Notes under the pieces: model-generated
Told to the model about the DNA's origin: nothing
The model's input: only the letters and a program-made list of their open reading frames with translations
Database searches by the model: none
Part shown: one piece after another, positions 2,528 through 38,797 of the stretch
Numbering within the stretch: position 1 is the first letter of the stretch
How the letters are laid out: every line of letters begins with the position of its first letter
Source of the DNA: Minisyncoccota bacterium
GTDB lineage: Bacteria; Patescibacteriota; Minisyncoccia; Phycocordibacterales; XYD1-FULL-46-19
Direction: 5' to 3'
Assembly (NCBI GenBank): GCA_040879645.1
Contig: JBBDJY010000016.1
Location: 11,064 to 75,063 of the forward strand
Length of the DNA stretch: 64,000 nt
Translations under genes and position numbers: made by a program

Positions 2528-2769
2528 AATTGATGATTCCAAAACCAAAACTGGCAAGGTGACACCTTGACAGTTTTGGTAGGGGGGATTTTTGTCCGGT
2601 TTCCACCGGCTTTTTTTGACCTTGACAAAACCATAAATATTTGCCAGTAATTGAATCAGACAACTTGGCCTTAGGCCCAGTTTTGACATAGGAATAAGCG
2701 AAACTTTTCGCGAAAATACACACACGGAACACGGACGAAAAAAGCCGATTTATCGGCAGGAGGTGAGTG

Positions 2770-4950
2770 ATGAAGAAGTTTATGGTGTTGTTTTTGGTGG
2801 TTGGACTGGCCGGTTTTCTGATCGGTTGTCCGCCCGCCGAGCGGACCGTCATCGTCGAGGGTTACCTTGACATCGACGGTTGCGATCAGGCGACTCTCGG
2901 GGCCGAAATCATTCGGCCGGAGTTTCCGGCCGAGGCAACCTTTGACCTCTACAAAGGTGACCGGTCCTCCATGCGTCCTTGGGCGCGGGTGGCTTACAAG
3001 GCCGGCGAAGACGTTGAAATCTACGAAGCGACGGCCGTTGACGGTCAGAAGCTTTTTCTTCAACGCCATGTGATGCTCTGGAACGGACAGTGGTATTACA
3101 CCACTCACCGGTCATTTCCTCATCAGCCGATCTATGTGATCGGTCGGCCGGTGATTGGCCGGGTGGATTATGATGTCAGTACTTTGGTCCGGGCCGTTCT
3201 CTTTGTCGGAATTTTGTCTCATTTAGGCAATATCGGCGATGGTGACGGTGCGGATGCGCCTTGGTTTGCCTTACCTGATCGCAGTAGTGATTGGGAATTG
3301 CCGGCCTTTGCTCTGTTTCGGATTACTGATCCGGCACCGGCCAGTTACCAAATTGTGGCCAGAGTGCCGGGCTGGGAGGCCGGAACGACCGAACGATTTA
3401 CCGGCATTGTCGGCAATCCTCATGGTTGTCCGCCACCGGGACCGGAAACGGTATTCGTGCCGGACACCAGTAACTTGCCGGAAGACGAAGCGGTGGACTT
3501 GGTCAACAGTTTCGACTTGATAGTCGGAACGATTACCCGGGTTTGCAGCGATACCGTCGCTACCGGTCGGGTGATTCGTTCCGTTCCGCCAGCCGGGGCT
3601 TCGGTACCGGTGGGGACGATCATTGACTTGGTTGTTTCCAGTGGGCCGTGTCCGCCAATAAATGTCACCGTTCCCGATTTTACCGGTGGAACGGAAGACG
3701 ATGCTCGTGATCGTCTTGACGACTTAGGTTTTGACGTCTCGGTGACCCGTGTTTGTAGCGACACCGTCGCTGTCGGCCGAGTCACCAGTCAAGATCCCTC
3801 AGCTGGGACTTCGGTACCGGTGGGGACGATCATTAACTTGGTGGTCTCGGATGGGCCGTGTACTTTGCCCAACTTGACGCTTGAGCTTGGTCTCAACCAG
3901 ACTGAATTTCAGGTTGGTGACACGGCGATTTTGACGGTCGAATGGTCCGGTAGTGGTACGCCGTTTGATTTTACGGCAACCTTCCCGGATGCGGTCGGCG
4001 TGGCTGGTCGGGTCTTTGAAAATGGCCTGATCGAGTTCTCGGTTTTGCCCGAGTCGGCTGATTCGTCGGTAGAACTTTTTACCGATGGCCTTGGTCACTT
4101 GGAGATTCACCGACGGTTGTCTTCGGATACCGGTGGCGAATCTTTGCCGATTTTGGTCCGGGTGATTGGGGTTGATGATCAGGAGGTGACGCGGGAAATT
4201 TTCCTGCGTGTCAATCGGCCTGATGTCACTGTTCCTGACTTTGGGGGCCGGACCGAGGACGAGGCTCGTGATGTGTTGGAAGGCTTGGGCCTTGGTGTAT
4301 CGGTGACCCGTGTGTGTAGCGACACTGTCGCTACCGGCCGGGTCATCAGTCAAGACCCTCCAGCCGGGACTTCGGTACCGGCGGGGACAATCATTAACTT
4401 GGTGGTCTCGAGCGGGCCGTGTGCGCCGGTAGAAATGCCGGTGCCGAATATTGTTGGCTTGCCCGAAGCCGAAGCGCGGTCGGCGATTGCTGATGCCGGC
4501 TTGAACCTCGGTGCGATTACTGAGGTCTATCATCCGACAATGACCGCCGGCCGGGTAACTTCTTCCAATCCGGTGGCCGGGACAATTGTACCACCCGGAT
4601 CAGCGGTTGATTTTTCGGTCTCACTCGGACCGGAACCTCCGCCGACCTTGAGTCTTTTGCTTGAGGTTTTGAATTCGACCAATCGTGTTTTTACGGTTGG
4701 TGACATTGTTGCTGTTCGGGCAACGATACTGGGTGGTCAGTCGGGATTCGAAGTCCGGATTGCTTGGCCGAACGCGACGCTCAATTCGTCGACCGGCCAG
4801 GCGCGAGTCTTTGACTTTGCCCAAGTGGCGACCAGTGCCACCTACTCGTCTGGAGCTGAGCCAATCTTTTTGCCCGTTCGCGGGCGAGTAATTGATTCGG
4901 CCGGAGCGGTGGCTGATGCGGAAGTGTTTATCCGCATTAACCCGAATTAG
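2770..4950 (+). CDS. Lipoprotein with at least four tandem PASTA-like domains (repeat unit VPDFTGGTEDDARDRLDDLGFDVSVTRVCSDTVAVGRV..SVPVGTIINLVVSxGPC)
   Basis: RBS GGAGG 7 nt upstream of ATG 2770; lipobox LIGC; repeated PASTA-like modules in translation. Confidence 0.7.
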   Translation: MKKFMVLFLVVGLAGFLIGCPPAERTVIVEGYLDIDGCDQATLGAEIIRPEFPAEATFDLYKGDRSSMRPWARVAYKAGEDVEIYEATAVDGQKLFLQRHVMLWNGQWYYTTHRSFPHQPIYVIGRPVIGRVDYDVSTLVRAVLFVGILSHLGNIGDGDGADAPWFALPDRSSDWELPAFALFRITDPAPASYQIVARVPGWEAGTTERFTGIVGNPHGCPPPGPETVFVPDTSNLPEDEAVDLVNSFDLIVGTITRVCSDTVATGRVIRSVPPAGASVPVGTIIDLVVSSGPCPPINVTVPDFTGGTEDDARDRLDDLGFDVSVTRVCSDTVAVGRVTSQDPSAGTSVPVGTIINLVVSDGPCTLPNLTLELGLNQTEFQVGDTAILTVEWSGSGTPFDFTATFPDAVGVAGRVFENGLIEFSVLPESADSSVELFTDGLGHLEIHRRLSSDTGGESLPILVRVIGVDDQEVTREIFLRVNRPDVTVPDFGGRTEDEARDVLEGLGLGVSVTRVCSDTVATGRVISQDPPAGTSVPAGTIINLVVSSGPCAPVEMPVPNIVGLPEAEARSAIADAGLNLGAITEVYHPTMTAGRVTSSNPVAGTIVPPGSAVDFSVSLGPEPPPTLSLLLEVLNSTNRVFTVGDIVAVRATILGGQSGFEVRIAWPNATLNSSTGQARVFDFAQVATSATYSSGAEPIFLPVRGRVIDSAGAVADAEVFIRINPN

Positions 4951-24530: not shown

Positions 24531-25607
24531 AAAGTCAGAATCTGTTACTGGTCTCGATTCTATCATAAAATCATTCCATTTCATGCTAAAATGAGTAGAT
24601 GAAGAAAAATAATATTATCATCTATCAAGCTAAATCAGGTGCTCTTGAGTTCAAGAGTGATTTGAAAGAAGATACTATTTGGGCATCACAAATCCAAATA
24701 GCCGAGGCTTTTAAGGTAAATGTTCGTACAGTAAACGAACATATAATAAACATTTACAAAACAAAAGAACTATTTAAGAAAGGAACTATCCGGAAATTCC
24801 GGATAGTTCAAAAAGAAGGAAACAGAGAAATTTCTCGTGATATCCAGCACTATAACTTAGACATTATTTTGTCAGTTGGATATAGAGTTAACTCAAAAAA
24901 AGCAACTAAGTTTAGGCAATGGGCCACCAAAACCCTTAAAGACCATTTAGTTAAAGGATATACGATAAATCGAAAAAGAATCGATAAAAACTATCTTGAG
25001 TTTTTAAGATCAGTCGAAGAAGTTAAAAAACTTCTTCCCCAAGGGAATACCCTGTCAACAAAAGATACCTTGGAGCTAATCAAATTCTTTGCCGGCACTT
25101 GGCTTTCTCTGGAGGCCTACGATAAATCAACATTTTCTAAACAGGGCCTAACTAAAAAACAAGTCAAAATCACAGCCGATGAATTGGAGAACGCTATTGT
25201 CGATTTACGGCATAATCTAATCTCACAAAAAGAAACGACGGACATCTTTGCTCAAGAAAAATCAACCGGTTCCATTGCTGGCATTGTGGGGAATGTATTC
25301 CAAGGTTTTAATGGTAAAAACCTCTATCCAACCGTAGAAGAAAAGGCCGCCCATCTTTTATATTTTATAGTCAAAAACCACCCCTTTATTGATGGAAACA
25401 AGCGAAGTGGAGCTTTTGCTTTTGTTTGGTTTTTGAACAAAGCCGGTATTTTAAATAGAGATAGTTTTACTCCCGAAGCATTAACGGCTTTAACAATTTT
25501 AGTGGCTGAGAGTAATCCGAGTGATAAAGAAAAAGTTGTTGGTTTGATTTTGAATTTATTAAGGTGATTTAACTTTTTATTCAATCCCAAATGATTGCCC
25601 CATTCTG
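24521..25607 (+). mobile_element. tRNA-Thr-associated islet bounded by about 45-bp direct repeats (24471-24520 and 25608-25650, both with the ccctcggcggatgctttcggc variant), carrying only a RhuM-Fic/Doc gene
   Basis: Direct repeats read directly; AT-rich cargo; no integrase present. Confidence 0.55.
24599..25567 (+). CDS. RhuM-family virulence-like protein fused to a C-terminal Fic/Doc domain (HPFIDGNKRSG motif)
   Basis: N-terminal RhuM-like pattern (IIYQ..NLDIILSVGYRVNSKKATKFRQWAT); C-terminal Fic/Doc motif HxFx(D)GNKR. Confidence 0.7.
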   Translation: MKKNNIIIYQAKSGALEFKSDLKEDTIWASQIQIAEAFKVNVRTVNEHIINIYKTKELFKKGTIRKFRIVQKEGNREISRDIQHYNLDIILSVGYRVNSKKATKFRQWATKTLKDHLVKGYTINRKRIDKNYLEFLRSVEEVKKLLPQGNTLSTKDTLELIKFFAGTWLSLEAYDKSTFSKQGLTKKQVKITADELENAIVDLRHNLISQKETTDIFAQEKSTGSIAGIVGNVFQGFNGKNLYPTVEEKAAHLLYFIVKNHPFIDGNKRSGAFAFVWFLNKAGILNRDSFTPEALTALTILVAESNPSDKEKVVGLILNLLR

Positions 25608-29097: not shown

Positions 29098-29475
29098 ATG
29101 CCACTATTAAATGATTTCAGATGTGATAAGTGTGATTTTGAACTACCTTCAGGTTGGGGAGGATATACATATGTTATAAATCAAAAAGGCGATAGGATAC
29201 ACTGTCCTCATCCCGGAGAAAGAGACAAGATCAAGGAAATATTGGGTTACCGCAGATTTTTTGAGTATTTTATAAATAGGCGGATTGGCTTTCATTCAGA
29301 TTGTGTTTGTTTGGATTGTCTCAGCCAATTTAATTTAGATATAAAAAAAGATAAAATCGAATGTTCATTTTGTCGTTCTAATAACATAAAAACAGAATCA
29401 GATATGGTTGGACAAATTTGTCCTAAGTGCAAGGTAGGTACTGTTAGAGAAATCTATACTGGTTCTATGTGTTAG
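29098..29475 (+). CDS. Cys-rich hypothetical protein with several CxxC zinc-ribbon-like pairs, in an AT-rich islet
   Basis: CDKC, CLDC, CSFC and CPKC pairs in translation; local AT-rich composition from 28906 to 29700. Confidence 0.45.
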   Translation: MPLLNDFRCDKCDFELPSGWGGYTYVINQKGDRIHCPHPGERDKIKEILGYRRFFEYFINRRIGFHSDCVCLDCLSQFNLDIKKDKIECSFCRSNNIKTESDMVGQICPKCKVGTVREIYTGSMC

Positions 29476-29746: not shown

Positions 29747-32299
29747 ATGGCCAAGAAAGATAATTCAGAGGCAAAAAAAAGCCGTAAATATACGGCTGAT
29801 AATATTGTTGTTTTGGAAGGATTGGAACCGGTCCGCAAACGCCCGGGGATGTATATCGGCTCCACCGGTCCGGACGGACTGCATCACCTGTTGGTAGAGA
29901 TTTTTGATAATGCCCGAGACGAGGCGATGAACGGCTATGCCGACGAGATTGAGGTCGCCCTTCTGCCTGACGGGGCGGTGCGGGTAGTGGACAACGGTAA
30001 TGGGATTCCGGTAGAAATCCACAAAAAGACTAAAGTTTCCACCTTGGAAACGGTGATGACGGTATTGCATGCCGGCGGTAAATTTGGCGGTGACGGTTAC
30101 AAAATTTCCGGCGGTTTACACGGTGTCGGCGCCTCAGTCGTCAATGCTTTGTCGGAATACTTGGTGGCCGAAGTCCATCGCGACGGCGGTAAATTCAGTC
30201 AGGAGTACAAACAGGGAATTAAAAAAGCCAAAGTAAAAAAAGTCGCTTCGTCCAAACTTTCCGGCACGGTGATTACTTTCAAGCCCGACAAAACAATTTT
30301 TTCCGAAACCGAATATGATTGGCAACGGGTCGTCAGTCATTTGCGTGGTCAGGCTTATTTGGTCAAAGGTTTGCGGATCAGAGTAATCGATGCTCGGCTG
30401 GTGACCGAAAAAATCAATACCGACGATGTCTTTTTCTTGAGTGAATTGGGTTTGGAAGCACCGTCCCGGACTTTCTATTTTGAAGGCGGACTTTTGTCTT
30501 TTGTTAAATTTCAAAACCAAGACGAAAAACCGGTCCACAAAAATATTTTCTACGTGGAAAAAGAAGCGAGTGAGGTGACGGTCGAGATTGCCCTGCAGTA
30601 TATTGATGATATTTCTCCGCGAGAAATCAGCTATACCAATAATACGATCACCCCGGAAGGAGGGATGCACTTGACCGGTTTTCGTACCGCTTTGACCCGA
30701 ACCTTAAATGATTATGCGCGGAAGAATAATTTAATTAAAGACAAGGAAGAGAATTTTACCGGTGATGATGTCCGTGAGGGGATTGTCGTTGTTGTTTCGG
30801 TCAAGTTGCGCGATCCGCAATTTGAAGGCCAGACCAAAGCCAAATTGGGCAGTGTGGAAGCCCGCAGTGCCACCGATTCGGTTTTTGGTGAAGCCTTCTC
30901 GATGTTTTTAGAGGAACATCCGGAAGACGCCAAGCAAATTATCGGCAAAGTCACTTTGGCGCTTAAGGCCCGCAAGGCGGCCAAGGCGGCCAAGGATTCG
31001 GTTTTGCGCAAGGGGGCGTTGGAAGGCCTGACTTTGCCGGGAAAACTCGCTGACTGCCAAACCCGTGATGCCTCCGAATCGGAATTGTTTATCGTCGAAG
31101 GCGATTCGGCCGGTGGATGTTTTTTAGGTGATACGAAAGTAGCATTAACCGATGGCCGAGAAGTGTCTTTTAAGGAATTGGTAGAGGAAGATAAAGCCGG
31201 TAAACAAAATTATTGTTATACCATTTCTAATGATGGCCGAGTAGCGGTTGGTCAGATTAAGCATCCCCGTATTACCAAGAGAAATACCGAAGTTATTAAG
31301 GTTATTTTAGATAATGAAGCGGAAATTGAATGTACTCCTGATCATCGTTTTATGCTTCGTGACGGTAGTTTCCGTCAAGCCCGTGAGTTAAAACCCGATG
31401 ATTCTTTGATGCCTCTCTATCGAAAAGTTTCTGAAAAAGGCGGACGAATCACTATTGCCGGATATGAAATGGTTATGAGTCCCGGTCTTAACCACCGAGT
31501 CAAGGCCGTGATAGCTGAGAATAAATTTGCTGATGTTTACGATATCGAAGTGCCGGGGACTCATAATTTTGCTTTAGCCGGCGGAGTTTTTGTTCATAAT
31601 TCAAGTAAACAAGGTCGGGATCGGCGGACGCAGGCGATTTTGCCGTTGCGGGGGAAGATTTTAAATGTTGAACGGGCGCGCTTGGACAAGATGCTTGCCT
31701 CGAAAGAAATCAAATCGCTGGTTATCGCCATTGGGGCGGCGATTGGCGATACTTTTAATATTGCCAAATTACGCTATCACAAGATTATCATCGCCACTGA
31801 CGCTGATGTGGACGGCGCGCACATTCGAACATTACTCTTGACCCTCTTTTACCGCTATTATAAGCCCTTGATTGAAGGTGGTTTTATCTATGTTGCTCAA
31901 CCACCGCTTTATAAAATCAAGAAAGGCAAAACGGTGGAATACGCCTATACCGAAGAAGGTAAAAGTCAAATTATTAAAAAACTTGGTGCCAATCCGGCGA
32001 TTGAAATGGAGGTGGCCGATGAGAGTGATGGCGAAATTGAAATAACCGAAGATGAAGCGGAAGAAAAAGCCGCCAAATCATCGAAAATCGGTCTCCAGCG
32101 CTACAAGGGTCTGGGTGAAATGAATCCGGAAGAACTATGGGAGACAACGATGAATCCCGACAGTCGAGTCTTAAAACAAGTAACCATCAATGAAGCCGAA
32201 GAGGCCGACAAAACTTTTGATGTTTTAATGGGTAATGAGGTTGAACCGCGCCGGTTGTTTATTCAAACCCATGCCAAGTTGGCCAAGGTGGATGTTTAA
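29747..32299 (+). CDS. gyrB: DNA gyrase subunit B containing a 161-aa mini-intein
   Basis: GyrB ATPase and Toprim motifs; extein junction EGDSAGG|[intein]|SSKQGRDR; ORF from 29714, likely ATG 29747. Confidence 0.9.
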   Translation: MAKKDNSEAKKSRKYTADNIVVLEGLEPVRKRPGMYIGSTGPDGLHHLLVEIFDNARDEAMNGYADEIEVALLPDGAVRVVDNGNGIPVEIHKKTKVSTLETVMTVLHAGGKFGGDGYKISGGLHGVGASVVNALSEYLVAEVHRDGGKFSQEYKQGIKKAKVKKVASSKLSGTVITFKPDKTIFSETEYDWQRVVSHLRGQAYLVKGLRIRVIDARLVTEKINTDDVFFLSELGLEAPSRTFYFEGGLLSFVKFQNQDEKPVHKNIFYVEKEASEVTVEIALQYIDDISPREISYTNNTITPEGGMHLTGFRTALTRTLNDYARKNNLIKDKEENFTGDDVREGIVVVVSVKLRDPQFEGQTKAKLGSVEARSATDSVFGEAFSMFLEEHPEDAKQIIGKVTLALKARKAAKAAKDSVLRKGALEGLTLPGKLADCQTRDASESELFIVEGDSAGGCFLGDTKVALTDGREVSFKELVEEDKAGKQNYCYTISNDGRVAVGQIKHPRITKRNTEVIKVILDNEAEIECTPDHRFMLRDGSFRQARELKPDDSLMPLYRKVSEKGGRITIAGYEMVMSPGLNHRVKAVIAENKFADVYDIEVPGTHNFALAGGVFVHNSSKQGRDRRTQAILPLRGKILNVERARLDKMLASKEIKSLVIAIGAAIGDTFNIAKLRYHKIIIATDADVDGAHIRTLLLTLFYRYYKPLIEGGFIYVAQPPLYKIKKGKTVEYAYTEEGKSQIIKKLGANPAIEMEVADESDGEIEITEDEAEEKAAKSSKIGLQRYKGLGEMNPEELWETTMNPDSRVLKQVTINEAEEADKTFDVLMGNEVEPRRLFIQTHAKLAKVDV
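31118..31600 (+). other. Mini-intein inside gyrB (Cys1 ... His-Asn, with +1 Ser); no homing endonuclease domain
   Basis: Block A CFLGDTKVAL, block B TPDHRF, blocks F/G VYDIEVPGTHNFALAGGVFVHN|S; 483 nt in frame. Confidence 0.8.
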
Positions 32300-32343
32300 C
32301 TCCCTTGATTAAGGATAAAAATTAATGTTACCATCGGAACAAT

Positions 32344-32544
32344 ATGACTACACAAGAATTAGAAAAATTAAACAGATTAGAAAAAGAAGTAAAAGTCCTA
32401 AAAACTTTAGTGGCTAATATCGTGCCTTTTGATAATGAGGGAGAGTATAAAAAATCTTTTGAAAATGAGATGAAGAAACTTTCAAAAGAAAAGACCATTT
32501 TCGAATATTCCGAAAAAGGAAGCTTAATTAAAAATCTTGCTTAA
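32344..32544 (+). CDS. Putative antitoxin (66 aa) of a RelE/ParE toxin-antitoxin pair
   Basis: Small ORF whose stop overlaps the toxin start (TAAATG); AT-rich islet. Confidence 0.5.
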   Translation: MTTQELEKLNRLEKEVKVLKTLVANIVPFDNEGEYKKSFENEMKKLSKEKTIFEYSEKGSLIKNLA

Positions 32545-32814
32545 ATGTATCGGATTTTATTTACAGCTAAATCAATCAAGTCGCTAAAAAAACTTCCTAA
32601 ATCCATTCAAGCGAAAACCGATTTATTAGTTGATATTCTGATTATTGATTATCGAGATAATCGGCTAAAGGCCAAAAAATTAAATACTAATCAATCATTA
32701 TTTTCTTTTAGAGTAACAAAAGACTATAGAGTGGTTTTTATGTTTGCAAATAGCTCAACTATTAAAGTTTTAGATATTAAACATCGGAAAGATATCTATA
32801 AAAAATTAAAATAA
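32545..32814 (+). CDS. RelE/ParE-family type II toxin
   Basis: Pattern YRILFTAKSIKSLKKL...FRVTKDYRVVF..IKVLDIKHRKDIYK typical of the RelE/ParE fold. Confidence 0.65.
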   Translation: MYRILFTAKSIKSLKKLPKSIQAKTDLLVDILIIDYRDNRLKAKKLNTNQSLFSFRVTKDYRVVFMFANSSTIKVLDIKHRKDIYKKLK

Positions 32815-34676: not shown

Positions 34677-35423
34677 ATGAGCCGAAATTTTTCTTTCTCT
34701 ATTGATGAGTTCTATCACCTGTATAATCGTGGTAACGATAAGAGGGATATTTTTCTTGATTATCTAGATAGGGAGAGATTTTTAAAATTACTCTATCTTT
34801 GTAATGGTAAAAATGAATTTCATATTCAAAAAATTCTTGACGAGGAACTTTTTTATTTTAATCGAGGTGAGTCTATCGTTGATATTGGAGCTTATTGTTT
34901 GATGGATAATCATTATCATTTATTGGTTAAAGAAAAGATGGAAAATGGCATCAGTCTTTTTATGCAACGATTATCAACGGCATATTCTATGTATTTTAAT
35001 AAAAAACACGATAGAACAGGCGCTTTGTTTGCCGGTCGTTTTAAGGCCAAACATCTTGATGACGATGACTATTTAAAGTATATTTTTGCTTATATTCATT
35101 TAAATCCGATTAAAATAGTTGATGATTTTAGTTGGAAATCCGGAATAGTAAATGATCTGGAAAAGATTAAAAAACATTTGAGCGATTATCGTTATTCGAG
35201 TTACCAAGATTATCTGGAGATCAATCGAGCAGAAACAAGAATCCTGAATAAAGAATCCTTTCCGGAATATTTTGATGATGTTGAAGATTTTAAAAATTAT
35301 CTAGATGATTGGATCAATTACCGAAGAGAAGAATTAGTCGAGGTTGAACCTCGACCAACAAAGGGTCATTCAATCAACAGTCGAGGTTCAACCTCGACTA
35401 GAGTTCTTTCGCTGATTCGATAA
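34677..35423 (+). CDS. REP-associated tyrosine transposase (RAYT), second copy; its 3' end runs into a REP doublet
   Basis: HUH motif NHYHLLVKE; YRYSSYQDY tyrosine region; N-terminal YHLYNRG. Confidence 0.8.
35337..35398. repeat. REP doublet (GTCGAGGTTGAACCTCGAC ... GTCGAGGTTCAACCTCGAC) overlapping the RAYT 3' end and containing the dnaE stop codon
   Basis: Direct reading. Confidence 0.85.
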
Positions 35424-38400
35424 TTAAACTGGGTTCATTATTACGATAAGAGATGCGGCCGCGGAGGGCGACGCATTTTTCCGGCAGTAAAATGTCTTTA
35501 AGTTTGGTGTAGGAACGAGCAAAACAAACGGTTTCTATTTGTCCGGAATAGTCGGCCAGGCGGATAAAGGCCATTAAATCGCCCTTTTTGGAATAAATGG
35601 TTTTGACTTCTTCAATAATACCGCCGATAGTGGCAGTGGCGCCGTCCGGTAAAGTTCGATTGTAATTGATGGTGTTTTCGTTTTTGGTAAATTTATCTTT
35701 AACTCGGTCCAAGGGATGGCCGGAGACATAAAGACCAAGCAATTCTTTTTCCCAAGCAAGAATTTCCGTCAAATCAACTGCCGGGCCGGTTTTTAACTTA
35801 AAAGCCGGCATGCCCGCTTCTTCGGCAATATCGCCAAATAGTGAGTCTTGAGCCGAATCGGCGTTTATTTTTTCCCGATGATAGGCCAAGGCCTCTTCAA
35901 TGTTGTGCAAGAGATCGCCGCGAGTTTGACCGAGATTGTCCAAAGCACCGGCTTTAATTAACGCTTCCAGTGATTTTCGGTTTAAGTTTTTGTGAGTGAT
36001 GCGACCCAGGAAATCGGGATAAGAGCGGTAAGGCCCGCCGGCTTTTCTTTCGGCGACAATCGCTTCGGCAATATCACCGCCTAAGTTTTTGATTGTTTGC
36101 AGGCCAAAGCGGATTTCGTCTCGGTCGGCTCCTTTAGTGACGGTGAAATCACCAAAGCTTTGATTGACATCCGGTGGCAAAACCGGAATATCCATTCGTC
36201 GACATTCGGTGATAATTTCGGCAATTTTTTCAGTGTCGCCCGATTCAGCCGACAGGACGGCGGTCATAAATTCGGCCGGATAATTGGCTTTCATATAGGC
36301 GGTTTGATAGGCGACTCGGCCATAACTGGCGGCATGGGCTTTATTAAAAGCGTAAGCGGCGAAGGGTTTGATGCGATTCCAGAGATCTTCGGCGGTTTTT
36401 TTGTCGATATGGTTTTTGACACAGCCGGATTTGAATTTTTCTTCTTGTTCGGCCATCAGTTTCGGGATTTTTTTACCCATCGCTTTGCGGAATTTATCGG
36501 CATCCAGCCAAGAATAGCCGGCCAATTTGATGGCGGTAATCATCACATCCTCTTGGTAGATAAGTAGGCCGAAACTGCGGCGGAGATCTTCCTTAAGGGC
36601 CGGATGAGGATAATCGACGGTATGAGGATTATGTTTGCGTTTGATGTATTCGGGGATAAATTCCATTGGTCCGGGGCGATAGAGAGCGACCATAGCGTTA
36701 ATATCGTCAATGTTGGTCGGTTTCAATTCTTTTAACCAGCGAGTCATGCCGGCGCCGTTTAATTGGAACAGTCCTTCGGTTTCGCCCCGAGCCAAAAGCC
36801 GAAAAGCTTTTTTGTCGTCTAGAGGAATATCGTCGATGTCAACTTTTTTCTGTCTGATTTTTTCCGCCAAACTGACGGCATCGTTTAAGATGGCAAGATT
36901 TTTCAAGCCGAGAAAGTCAAACTTGGTTAGACCGATGCCGTCTTCGCCGACCGAATACATATCATATTGGGTAATGATGCTCTGACCTTTTGGGTCATAT
37001 TGAACCGGCACATAGTGATCCAAGGTTTGCGGAGCGATAACGACACCGGCGGCGTGAACGGAAATATGCCGAGCCGAACCCTCGATTTTTTTAGCCAAGT
37101 CAATGATTTGCTTGACTTCCGCTTCTTCGGCATACATTTTTTTTAATTCCGGTTCCATTTTTAAGGCGCGGTCAATGGTCATGGCAAAACCCTGTGAACC
37201 AAGTGGGATCAATTTGGCAATTCGGTCACCGGTGGCATAAGGGAAACCCAAAGCCCGGGCGACATCACGGACCGAACCGCGAGCCATCATTGTGCCGAAA
37301 GTTCCAATTTGGGCGACCTTATCTTCGCCGTATTTGACTTTGGCGTATTTGATGATTTCATCTCGTCGATTATCGGCAAAGTCCATATCAATATCCGGCG
37401 CCGATGGGCGGTCGGGATTTAGAAAGCGTTCAAAGGGGATTTGATATTCGAGCGGATCAAGTTTAGTAATATCTAAAGAGTAAGTGGTGATTGAACCGGC
37501 GACCGAACCGCGAATATTGTAAAAAATGTTATTCTCCCTGGCAAAGCGAATCAAATCCTCTACCACCAGAAAATAAGATGAATAACCCTTTAATTTGATG
37601 ATATTTAATTCATAATCCAGGCGTTCGTGGGCCGCTTGGTTGTCACCCAGTCCTTTTTTGATCAAACCGGCCAGACTTAAATCGCGTAACAGCGTGTCGG
37701 CATCGGAGCCGGCCGGCAATTCAAAATTGGGGAAAATAAATTCGCCCAAAGTAATATCCACTTGGCAACGATCGGCAATCCGCCCGGTATTTTTAACCGC
37801 CTCGGGAAAATCACGGTAAATGGTTTCGGCCCGGTCGGGACTGATAAAAGAATAATCGCCGTTTTTCATCGACATTTCGCTTTGACCGACTTCATGGCCG
37901 GTATTGATGGCCACTAAAGTATCGTGAGCCTCGGCATCAGCCGGATCAATATAATGGGAATCCCAAGTGGCGACTAACGGTAAGTTAAATTCGCCGGCCA
38001 GAGTTTTTAAGTGCCGGCCGATGCGGTCAATGTCGGGGACTTCTTCATGGCGCATTACTTCCAAAAAATAATTATTCGGACCGAAAATAGCCAAAAATTC
38101 TTTAACGATGGCCCGTCCGCGGTCTAAATCATCGGCGGCCAAAGCCCGAGACAATTCGCCACCCGGACAACCGGACAGGCAAATCAAGCCCTCGGCATGT
38201 TCGGCGAGGATGTCTTTGTCAATCCGCGGTTTGTAATAAAAGCCCTCGAGGTTGGCTTTGGTTGTCAAGCGGATAAGGTTGCGATAACCTTCATTATTTT
38301 CGGCCAACAGCGTCAGGTGATAACGGCGAGCATCAATGCCGGATTCTTTATCTTGCCGACCACGGACGGCGACATAGGCCTCAACGCCGAGAATTGGTTT

Positions 38401-38577
38401 AATGTCGGCTTGGTGGCATTTTTGATAGAATTCAATCAGGCCGTACATATTACCGTGATCGGTCAGGGCAATGGCCGGCATATTAAATTCCTTGGCTTTA
38501 GCCACTAATTCGCTGATTTTAGACAGACCGTCAAGTAGACTGTAATGGCTATGAGTATGGAGGTGAACAAATGACAT
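35398..38577 (-). CDS. dnaE: DNA polymerase III alpha subunit
   Basis: PHP-domain N-terminus [17 protein letters not shown]; polymerase core motifs; ORF extends to 38601. Confidence 0.9.
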
Positions 38578-38797
38578 GGGGGTATTATAGCAAAAAACCA
38601 CTTTGCCTGCAGATCAAGTGTTATTAGGTTAAAACATTATTATAATCACTCTTTATTTGCAATCCCTTTTTCTAAAGATATTGCCTACCTAAGGTAGTCA
38701 ATGGAGTTAAAATTTGTTTCATTGAGATTACTATTGATTACTTGATAATTTTGTTGTAGGATTAAAGTAGAAAACACTCTGAAAGGAGGTGATAATT

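Follow-up and report, generated by a model that had tools for sequence, protein, structure and literature searches.

We describe an intein that interrupts the DNA gyrase subunit B gene (gyrB) in a 64,000-nucleotide (nt) stretch of a Minisyncoccota metagenome-assembled genome (MAG; assembly GCA_040879645.1, contig JBBDJY010000016.1, positions 11,064 to 75,063). The whole stretch is called the window below, and coordinates are window positions. The 161-amino-acid (aa) insert is a class-1 intein, and it is very probably a GyrB-family mini-intein, at the site of the Ssp GyrB intein, that is spliced out of its precursor, has lost an HNH endonuclease by deletion and was acquired horizontally. The first-pass annotation, made from sequence alone, had placed an in-frame 483-nt insertion at 31118-31600 between EGDSAGG and SSKQGRDR, and its coordinates and sequence are exact. 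Its interpretation of the insert as a class-1 intein stands along with the observation, given profile scores above cut-off, a full set of splicing residues and a predicted HINT fold. The kind of element and the site are already well known, the latter being among the commonest and longest-known bacterial intein sites; this copy was previously unannotated, and the locus leaves current understanding unchanged. Its main value is one of annotation: the 850-aa product is identical to a protein (P0031) that NCBI names 'MAG: ATP-binding protein [Candidatus Paceibacterota bacterium]', which makes the host an uncultured member of the Patescibacteria (CPR), and this name should become intein-containing DNA gyrase subunit B, with a mature length of ~689 aa.

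In the list of open reading frames (ORFs), the longest gyrB ORF starts at TTG 29714 and ends at 32299 on the + strand. The likely start is ATG 29747, and the frame is open through 850 codons. The product scores 886 bits against NF004189, the NCBIfam DNA gyrase subunit B subfamily (cut-off 740), and contains the Pfam domains HATPase_c, DNA_gyraseB, Toprim and DNA_gyraseB_C. Because of the intein insert, the deposited protein falls just under the cut-off of the gyrB equivalog TIGR01059 (864.8 bits against 882.4). The features of the gene are as follows.

29747..32299, + strand: gyrB precursor gene, 850 aa from ATG 29747, stop codon in range
29747..31117, + strand: N-extein, ending in the Toprim motif ...ELFIVEGDSAGG and aligned as far as the junction with GyrB chain 8s7k_B
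31118..31600, + strand: class-1 mini-intein, 161 aa, Cys1...His160-Asn161, from translation, profiles and fold
31118..31156, + strand: block A, CFLGDTKVALTDG, whose first codon (31118-31120) encodes the nucleophile Cys1; within the TIGR01445 match, with the start CF.GDTKVAL common to the family
31334..31345, + strand: block B, T73-P-D-H76, a TxxH motif
31439..31489, + strand: putative endonuclease deletion scar, GGRITIAGYEMVMSPGL, from alignment to 429-436-aa relatives and other shortened copies
31532..31573, + strand: block F, DVYDIEVPGTHNFA, with Asp142 and His149; V(Y/F)DxEV...THNF is near-universal in the family
31580..31603, + strand: block G, GGVFVHN, followed by the C-extein +1 Ser (31601-31603); within the TIGR01443 match
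31601..32296, + strand: C-extein, SSKQGRDR... to the end of GyrB, with Pfam Toprim and DNA_gyraseB_C matches downstream of the insert

Splicing residues and predicted fold of the insert

Translated in frame, the 483 nt give 161 codons reading CFLGDTKVAL...ALAGGVFVHN, flanked by ...ELFIVEGDSAGG on the N side and SSKQGRDRRTQA on the C side. The Cys1 of block A, the TPDH of block B, the His-Asn end and the +1 Ser, all named in the first-pass annotation, were each located (residues 1, 73-76 and 160-161 for those within the intein). The class-1 residue set is complete and matches the family consensus (C1, T73, H76, D142, H149, H160, N161, S+1). This family was collected as a set of 153 GyrB inteins, comprising 81 protein matches and 72 genome loci from Patescibacteria, DPANN archaea, cyanobacteria and other phyla. 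A TxxH motif follows a conserved Cys in 149 of the 153 members and is worded TPDH in 129; FVHN directly before Ser forms the junction in all GyrB copies examined, the +1 residue always being Ser. Assignment to the class-3 inteins was rejected, as Cys1 is present and block F (DVYDIEVPGTHNF) holds no Cys.

Profile searches, which the first-pass annotation had proposed for the intein blocks, recover block homology at both ends of the insert, at scores well outside what chance would give. Pfam Intein_splicing matches with E=5e-20 and 72 bits (cut-off 35.8), TIGR01445, for the N-terminal splicing region, with 53 bits (24.5) over residues 1-79, and TIGR01443, for the C-terminal splicing region, with 30.4 bits (15.6) over residues 139-161. 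A hidden Markov model (HMM) of GyrB-intein splicing domains, which counts the window intein among its own rows, matches it end to end with 260 bits (E=1e-79). In a sequence search of the PDB, only intein chains were returned at E<1e-3 (DnaE, DnaB, NrdJ-1, RadA, CDC21). No second intein copy was found by the family HMM in the six-frame translation of the window, and a Pfam search of dnaE (35398-38601, - strand) gave no intein domain.

The insert is predicted to adopt the HINT fold. An AlphaFold (AF2) model built with 21 relatives is nearly all-beta, with a mean predicted local distance difference test (pLDDT) of 91.4 and a predicted template modelling (pTM) score of 0.84; its sole low-confidence stretch is a linker at about residues 105-125 (pLDDT 65-81). 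All 50 listed Foldseek matches in the PDB are inteins or bacterial intein-like (BIL)/HINT domains with a probability of 1.00, and the top match is the Npu DnaE intein (E=1e-9, template modelling score (TM-score) 0.74-0.86 depending on normalisation). The structurally characterised class-1 mini-inteins (Npu/Ssp DnaE, Ssp DnaB, the Mtu RecA splicing domain, NrdJ-1) have the same HINT horseshoe and catalytic architecture at TM-scores of 0.70-0.86, while being only ~20% identical to the window intein and occupying other host proteins and sites.

The expectation that removal of the segment would restore a contiguous GyrB is borne out: without the 161 residues the protein is 689 aa long and aligns ungapped across the junction ("vegdsaggs+k grd") with the solved GyrB chain 8s7k_B (E=3.5e-191). 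A rival reading takes the insert for an unspliced, lineage-specific GyrB insertion domain or a BIL domain. Some GyrB proteins, for example that of E. coli, hold large unspliced insertions in the Toprim region, and BIL domains have the HINT fold and occur among the listed fold matches (6y75, 2lwy). However, the insert sits within an invariant catalytic motif and not in a surface loop, its junctions carry Cys1, His-Asn and Ser+1, and both terminal intein profiles score above cut-off. Orthologues that are 85% identical lack the insert residue for residue, and the inteins most closely related to it, which occupy the same site, are bifunctional and carry HNH. We rejected a retained domain on the junction residues and the exact absence in orthologues, and consider it extremely improbable.

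For a spliced intein, the course of events would be the following. The gyrB gene would be translated as an 850-aa precursor with its Toprim domain interrupted directly after the catalytic EGDSAGG. On the established view of Toprim catalysis this precursor should be inactive, because the intein splits the domain right after the acidic EGDSAGG motif. An N-S acyl shift at Cys1 would be followed by trans-esterification to Ser+1, by cyclisation of Asn161 with assistance from His160, and by an O-N acyl shift. The products would be a ~689-aa GyrB, with ...EGDSAGG joined to SSKQGRDR..., and a free 18-kDa intein.

Endonuclease loss and splicing competence

The insert had been described at first as lacking a homing-endonuclease domain, and our searches agree. 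Neither HNH nor LAGLIDADG was matched in Pfam and NCBIfam profile scans of the insert, Intein_splicing being the sole Pfam match. Most of the 153 family inteins are 429-436 aa long with an HNH homing endonuclease, and full-length members match Pfam HNH_3 centrally. Alignment to 434-aa relatives shows ~273 residues absent from the window copy, including the whole HNH_3 region and a long helical region. In comparison with the 429-436-aa relatives, the parts kept are the N-terminal splicing lobe (1 to ~105), a remnant (GGRITIAGYEMVMSPG) and the C-terminal LNHRVKAV...DVYDIEVPGTHNFALAGGVFVHN, with only ~40 residues between the end of the N-terminal lobe and block F. The remnant on the N side of the scar, RITIxGYEMV, corresponds to the stretch by which full-length relatives pass into their HNH region; it nearly abuts the NHR(V/I)K segment, which in those relatives follows the endonuclease region. 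For the deletion boundaries, NHRVKAV was set on the C side of the gap in line with the NHR(I/V)K found before block F in all relatives; the default MAFFT placement on the N side is contradicted by that position and was discarded. Among the shortened copies, the remnant wording ...EKGGRITI(A/S)GYEMVM(S/N)P... is found only in the window copy and in P0051 (227 aa).

From these alignments to relatives we infer a deletion history in which the ancestor would have been a bifunctional intein of ~432-434 aa with an HNH homing endonuclease, which then underwent an internal deletion of ~273 residues. Once the endonuclease was removed, the copy would be immobile, with no further homing. Its persistence could be explained by the host gene, as a splicing-blocking mutation would inactivate an essential enzyme and so only spliced copies would survive.

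The nearest comparison is with the bifunctional HNH GyrB inteins of Patescibacteria and DPANN archaea (P0046, P0032, P0115), some inteins of this kind being named 'intein-containing DNA gyrase subunit B' at NCBI. These three occupy the same site, their splicing domains are 60-72% identical to that of the window, and they have Cys1, Cys33, Cys72, TPDH and VYDxEV..THNF..FVHN before Ser in common with it. They differ in length, at 429-436 aa with HNH_3 and the long helical region, the window copy being ~273 residues shorter. The closest of all is P0046 from a Paceibacterota host (434 aa, HNH), with 72% identity over 157 splicing-domain positions and with the NHRVKAV and GGRITI.GYEMV segments in common.

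Natural mini-inteins of the same site and family that lack the endonuclease are also known from the collected set: P0044 (139 aa), L043 (140 aa), L029 (141 aa), L007 (147 aa), P0048 and L003 (both 156 aa) and L080 (161 aa). Each has its own deletion end points, and with 55-65% identity to the window intein none is close to it. Across the family, 23 of 153 copies measure less than 300 aa. Their deletions end at different positions in different copies, as expected if the endonuclease has decayed repeatedly and independently after fixation. The locus adds one more data point for the homing cycle, from invasion through endonuclease decay to an immobile mini-intein, and its site is one that allows many independent decay products to be set side by side.

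The best-known relative is the intein of the same host protein in Synechocystis sp. PCC 6803 (Ssp GyrB), whose insertion site, according to InBase, is that of the window intein. It opens with CFSGDT..., carries TPDH as its block B and finishes in ...THNFALASGVFVHN, followed by Ser+1. In its natural form it is said, in an account by Dalgaard et al. from 1997, to be bifunctional and ~435 aa long with an HNH endonuclease. The window copy differs from it in being a natural mini-intein in a Paceibacterota host. The comparison was made through two cyanobacterial stand-ins with the identical site, L039 (Cyanothece), with 68% splicing-domain identity to the window intein, and L040 (Leptolyngbyaceae), whose best tblastn segment is 64% identical. 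Engineering of the Ssp GyrB intein has yielded a mini-intein and split inteins, S11 derivatives among them, with good splicing (PMC3620165; PMC3443213); for the endonuclease-free mini-intein, of ~156 aa, efficient splicing is documented in E. coli (PMC3620165, Table 1). The region removed by engineering is about the same as that lost in the putative natural deletion of the window intein.

Splicing competence of the window intein is plausible, because the engineered Ssp GyrB mini-intein splices efficiently without nearly the same region. A different possibility is a splicing-dead relic: the precursor would undergo cleavage at most, never splicing, and gyrB would either be a pseudogene or have its role covered by a second type II topoisomerase B subunit encoded elsewhere in the genome. 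As a general statement, mini-inteins without their endonuclease represent the decay phase of the homing cycle (PMC7765530), the linker at residues ~105-125 is modelled at lower confidence, and our view is limited to 64 kb of the genome. Against a relic, the frame is open over 850 codons, the catalytic residues all equal the family consensus, the family HMM matches end to end, and the exteins retain all GyrB domains at 85% identity to intein-free orthologues. The Ssp GyrB intein, moreover, still splices after engineered deletion of its endonuclease. We regard a relic as very unlikely, and a splicing-competent intein remains the preferred reading. The window copy, a compact natural 161-aa mini-intein with Ser+1 and kin of an intein already used in biotechnology (Ssp GyrB), is a possible candidate for protein engineering.

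Two further cysteines are nearly invariant in the family, Cys33 (31214-31216) in 150 of 153 copies and Cys72 (31331-31333), immediately before the Thr of block B, in 149. They may be structural, or they may be redox- or metal-sensitive. One possible hypothesis is that the intein is kept as a post-translational switch of gyrase and is not merely a tolerated parasite. Cys1, Cys33 and Cys72 could then act as a redox-sensitive (disulfide) or metal-sensitive trap: in a Patescibacterium with a reduced genome, stress would hold back splicing and, with it, the activation of gyrase. Each of the three is conserved in at least 97% of the 153 members, but the same conservation is also expected of purely structural residues, and we consider the switch improbable.

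Family membership, distribution and origin

A comparison with other GyrB inteins, suggested at first pass, was run over the 153 collected copies, and the insertion site is identical in 153 of 153, with EGDSAGG before C...FVHN and Ser after it. The site lies in the GyrB Toprim domain, between EGDSAGG and S(A/S/G)K(Q/M/T)GRDR. When the whole precursor was used as query, 81 of the best 120 GyrB relatives carried an intein at this position. Their lengths are 418-435 aa in 73 cases, and the other eight, window copy included, measure 139, 156, 161, 218, 227, 253, 254 and 354 aa. An intein-only query against one genome per GTDB species gave 80 loci, 72 of them GyrB inteins with the same junction. The hosts of these 72 are Patescibacteria, Woese-, Pace-, Micr- and Nanoarchaeota, cyanobacteria (Cyanothece, Leptolyngbyaceae), Omnitrophota, Acidobacteria, Nitrospirota and others, together with bins labelled Gamma- and Deltaproteobacteria. 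The window intein is 53-72% identical to family members, cyanobacterial copies included. The breadth of the family is in line with earlier surveys: 33 bacterial GyrB inteins were counted in 2015 (PMC4760082), one "gyrB" allele spans Halobacteria, cyanobacteria and proteobacteria (PMC4071816), and a gyrase phylogeny left aside 61 archaeal GyrB sequences with inteins (PMC9348778).

Related inteins at 44-63% identity were also seen in other host proteins, among them RadA/Rad51, GyrA, RtcB, ribonucleotide reductase (RNR)-like proteins and several unidentified, possibly phage-derived proteins (P0008, P0013, P0014, P0009, P0011, P0017, P0020; L060:2941-3405; L006:2123-2611). In GyrA the insertion follows DGQGN(F/M)G, upstream of the ...AMRY motif, and in an RNR-like protein of a Pacearchaeote the intein C...HN lies between NP and CSEY. 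A single splicing-domain lineage appears to have spread to many different sites. A separate observation concerns a 1047-aa Patescibacteria GyrB from outside the window (P0084), which has a 354-aa intein at the same site with an NYN (PIN-like nuclease) domain in place of the HNH region (PF01936, E=8e-19); NCBI names this protein 'NYN domain-containing protein'. An NYN domain in an intein is unusual, and it may be an alternative homing module or another kind of nuclease module.

Intein-free gyrB alleles in relatives, a further point raised in the first-pass annotation, were looked for and found. Among the matches listed, the 31 GyrB proteins closest by extein identity (75.5-85%) are all intein-free; a closer intein-bearing relative would head the ranking of the precursor search. 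In two of the relatives, L082 and L084, the intein-free gyrB stands in the order pheS-pheT-gyrB-thrS, as in the window, and because of this shared arrangement they are true orthologous intein-free alleles. The +1/+2 residues of the window C-extein, SS, are also those of the closest intein-free relatives (SSKMGRDR, SSKQGRDR). The extein of P0046 is only 67% identical to the window extein, less than the identity of the two inteins. The intein-free state of the 31 closest exteins, together with this higher identity of intein than of extein, favours horizontal acquisition over vertical inheritance with many losses, as far as sequence comparison can tell. Entry into the lineage would most likely have been from another Patescibacteria or a DPANN-type donor.

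Base composition sets the intein apart from its surroundings. Its G+C content at third codon positions (GC3) is 0.298, compared with 0.515 in the exteins (Fisher p=7e-7) and 0.49-0.50 in neighbouring housekeeping genes, and no intein-sized window of the extein falls below 0.429.

Several points weigh against a spliced, horizontally acquired mini-intein with this history. GC3 is below that of the host extein in 61 of 72 GyrB intein loci (mean difference -0.096, Wilcoxon p=7e-11). This deficit is seen whatever the host phylum, the window copy being in the lowest 8%. Low GC3 is a general trait of the family and therefore supports a foreign mobile element but not a recent arrival; its use as proof of recent acquisition was downgraded after this 72-locus control. 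A co-conversion tract is not visible in the flanking extein DNA on codon-level comparison with L082 in 30-codon windows; near the junction nucleotide identity to L082 is 0.77-0.81 and the flank GC3 is host-like. The nearest intein relative is just 72% identical. No deletion intermediate was found in the same lineage, the exact gene is carried by one assembly only, and splicing itself is something that we infer from the conserved residues and the intact gyrB.

The sharp compositional boundary and the single assembly could also result from an assembly chimera, in which the intein of a lower-GC organism's gyrB was joined in through the conserved coding flanks for EGDSAGG and SAKQGRDR. GC3 steps abruptly at both intein edges (0.30 against 0.52), the source is a MAG, and no independent contig on record carries the exact precursor; one overlapping Logan contig, which shares thrS, covers the last 62 gyrB codons only. 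For a chimera to arise, however, the assembly would have had to switch source twice, in frame and exactly at the two intein boundaries, and still show host-like sequence on either side. The same-sign GC3 offset in loci of unrelated assemblies makes the step a property of the element and not of the assembly, and the SS at +1/+2 is that of the closest intein-free relatives. We consider a chimera highly improbable and a genuine, acquired intein the better account of the locus.

Neighbouring genes in the window

The gap between pheT and gyrB holds a 125-aa Cys-rich ORF (29098-29475, + strand) with several CxxC pairs, zinc-ribbon-like and with no Pfam match; no gene is called in this gap in L082 and L084. 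Between gyrB and thrS lies a ParE-like toxin ORF (32545-32814, + strand; Pfam ParE_toxin, E=8e-6), which is absent from L082 and L084. A small ORF upstream of it, at ~32340-32545, is likely the antitoxin, and a 66-aa gene is called on L001. The toxin and the small ORF together form an insertion between gyrB and thrS. Further on, between thrS and dnaE, is an IS200-like ORF of the Y1 transposase family (34677-35423, + strand; Pfam Y1_Tnp, E=2.7e-10). In relatives a V-type ATPase operon comes after thrS, so the gene order differs from that of the window.

Near the start of the window are two consecutive ORFs of 727 aa each (301-2484 and 2767-4950, both + strand), the first without a Pfam match and the second with four PASTA domains. 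An ORF at 24599-25567 (+ strand) encodes a 322-aa protein with a RhuM-family domain at its N terminus and a Fic/DOC domain at its C terminus.

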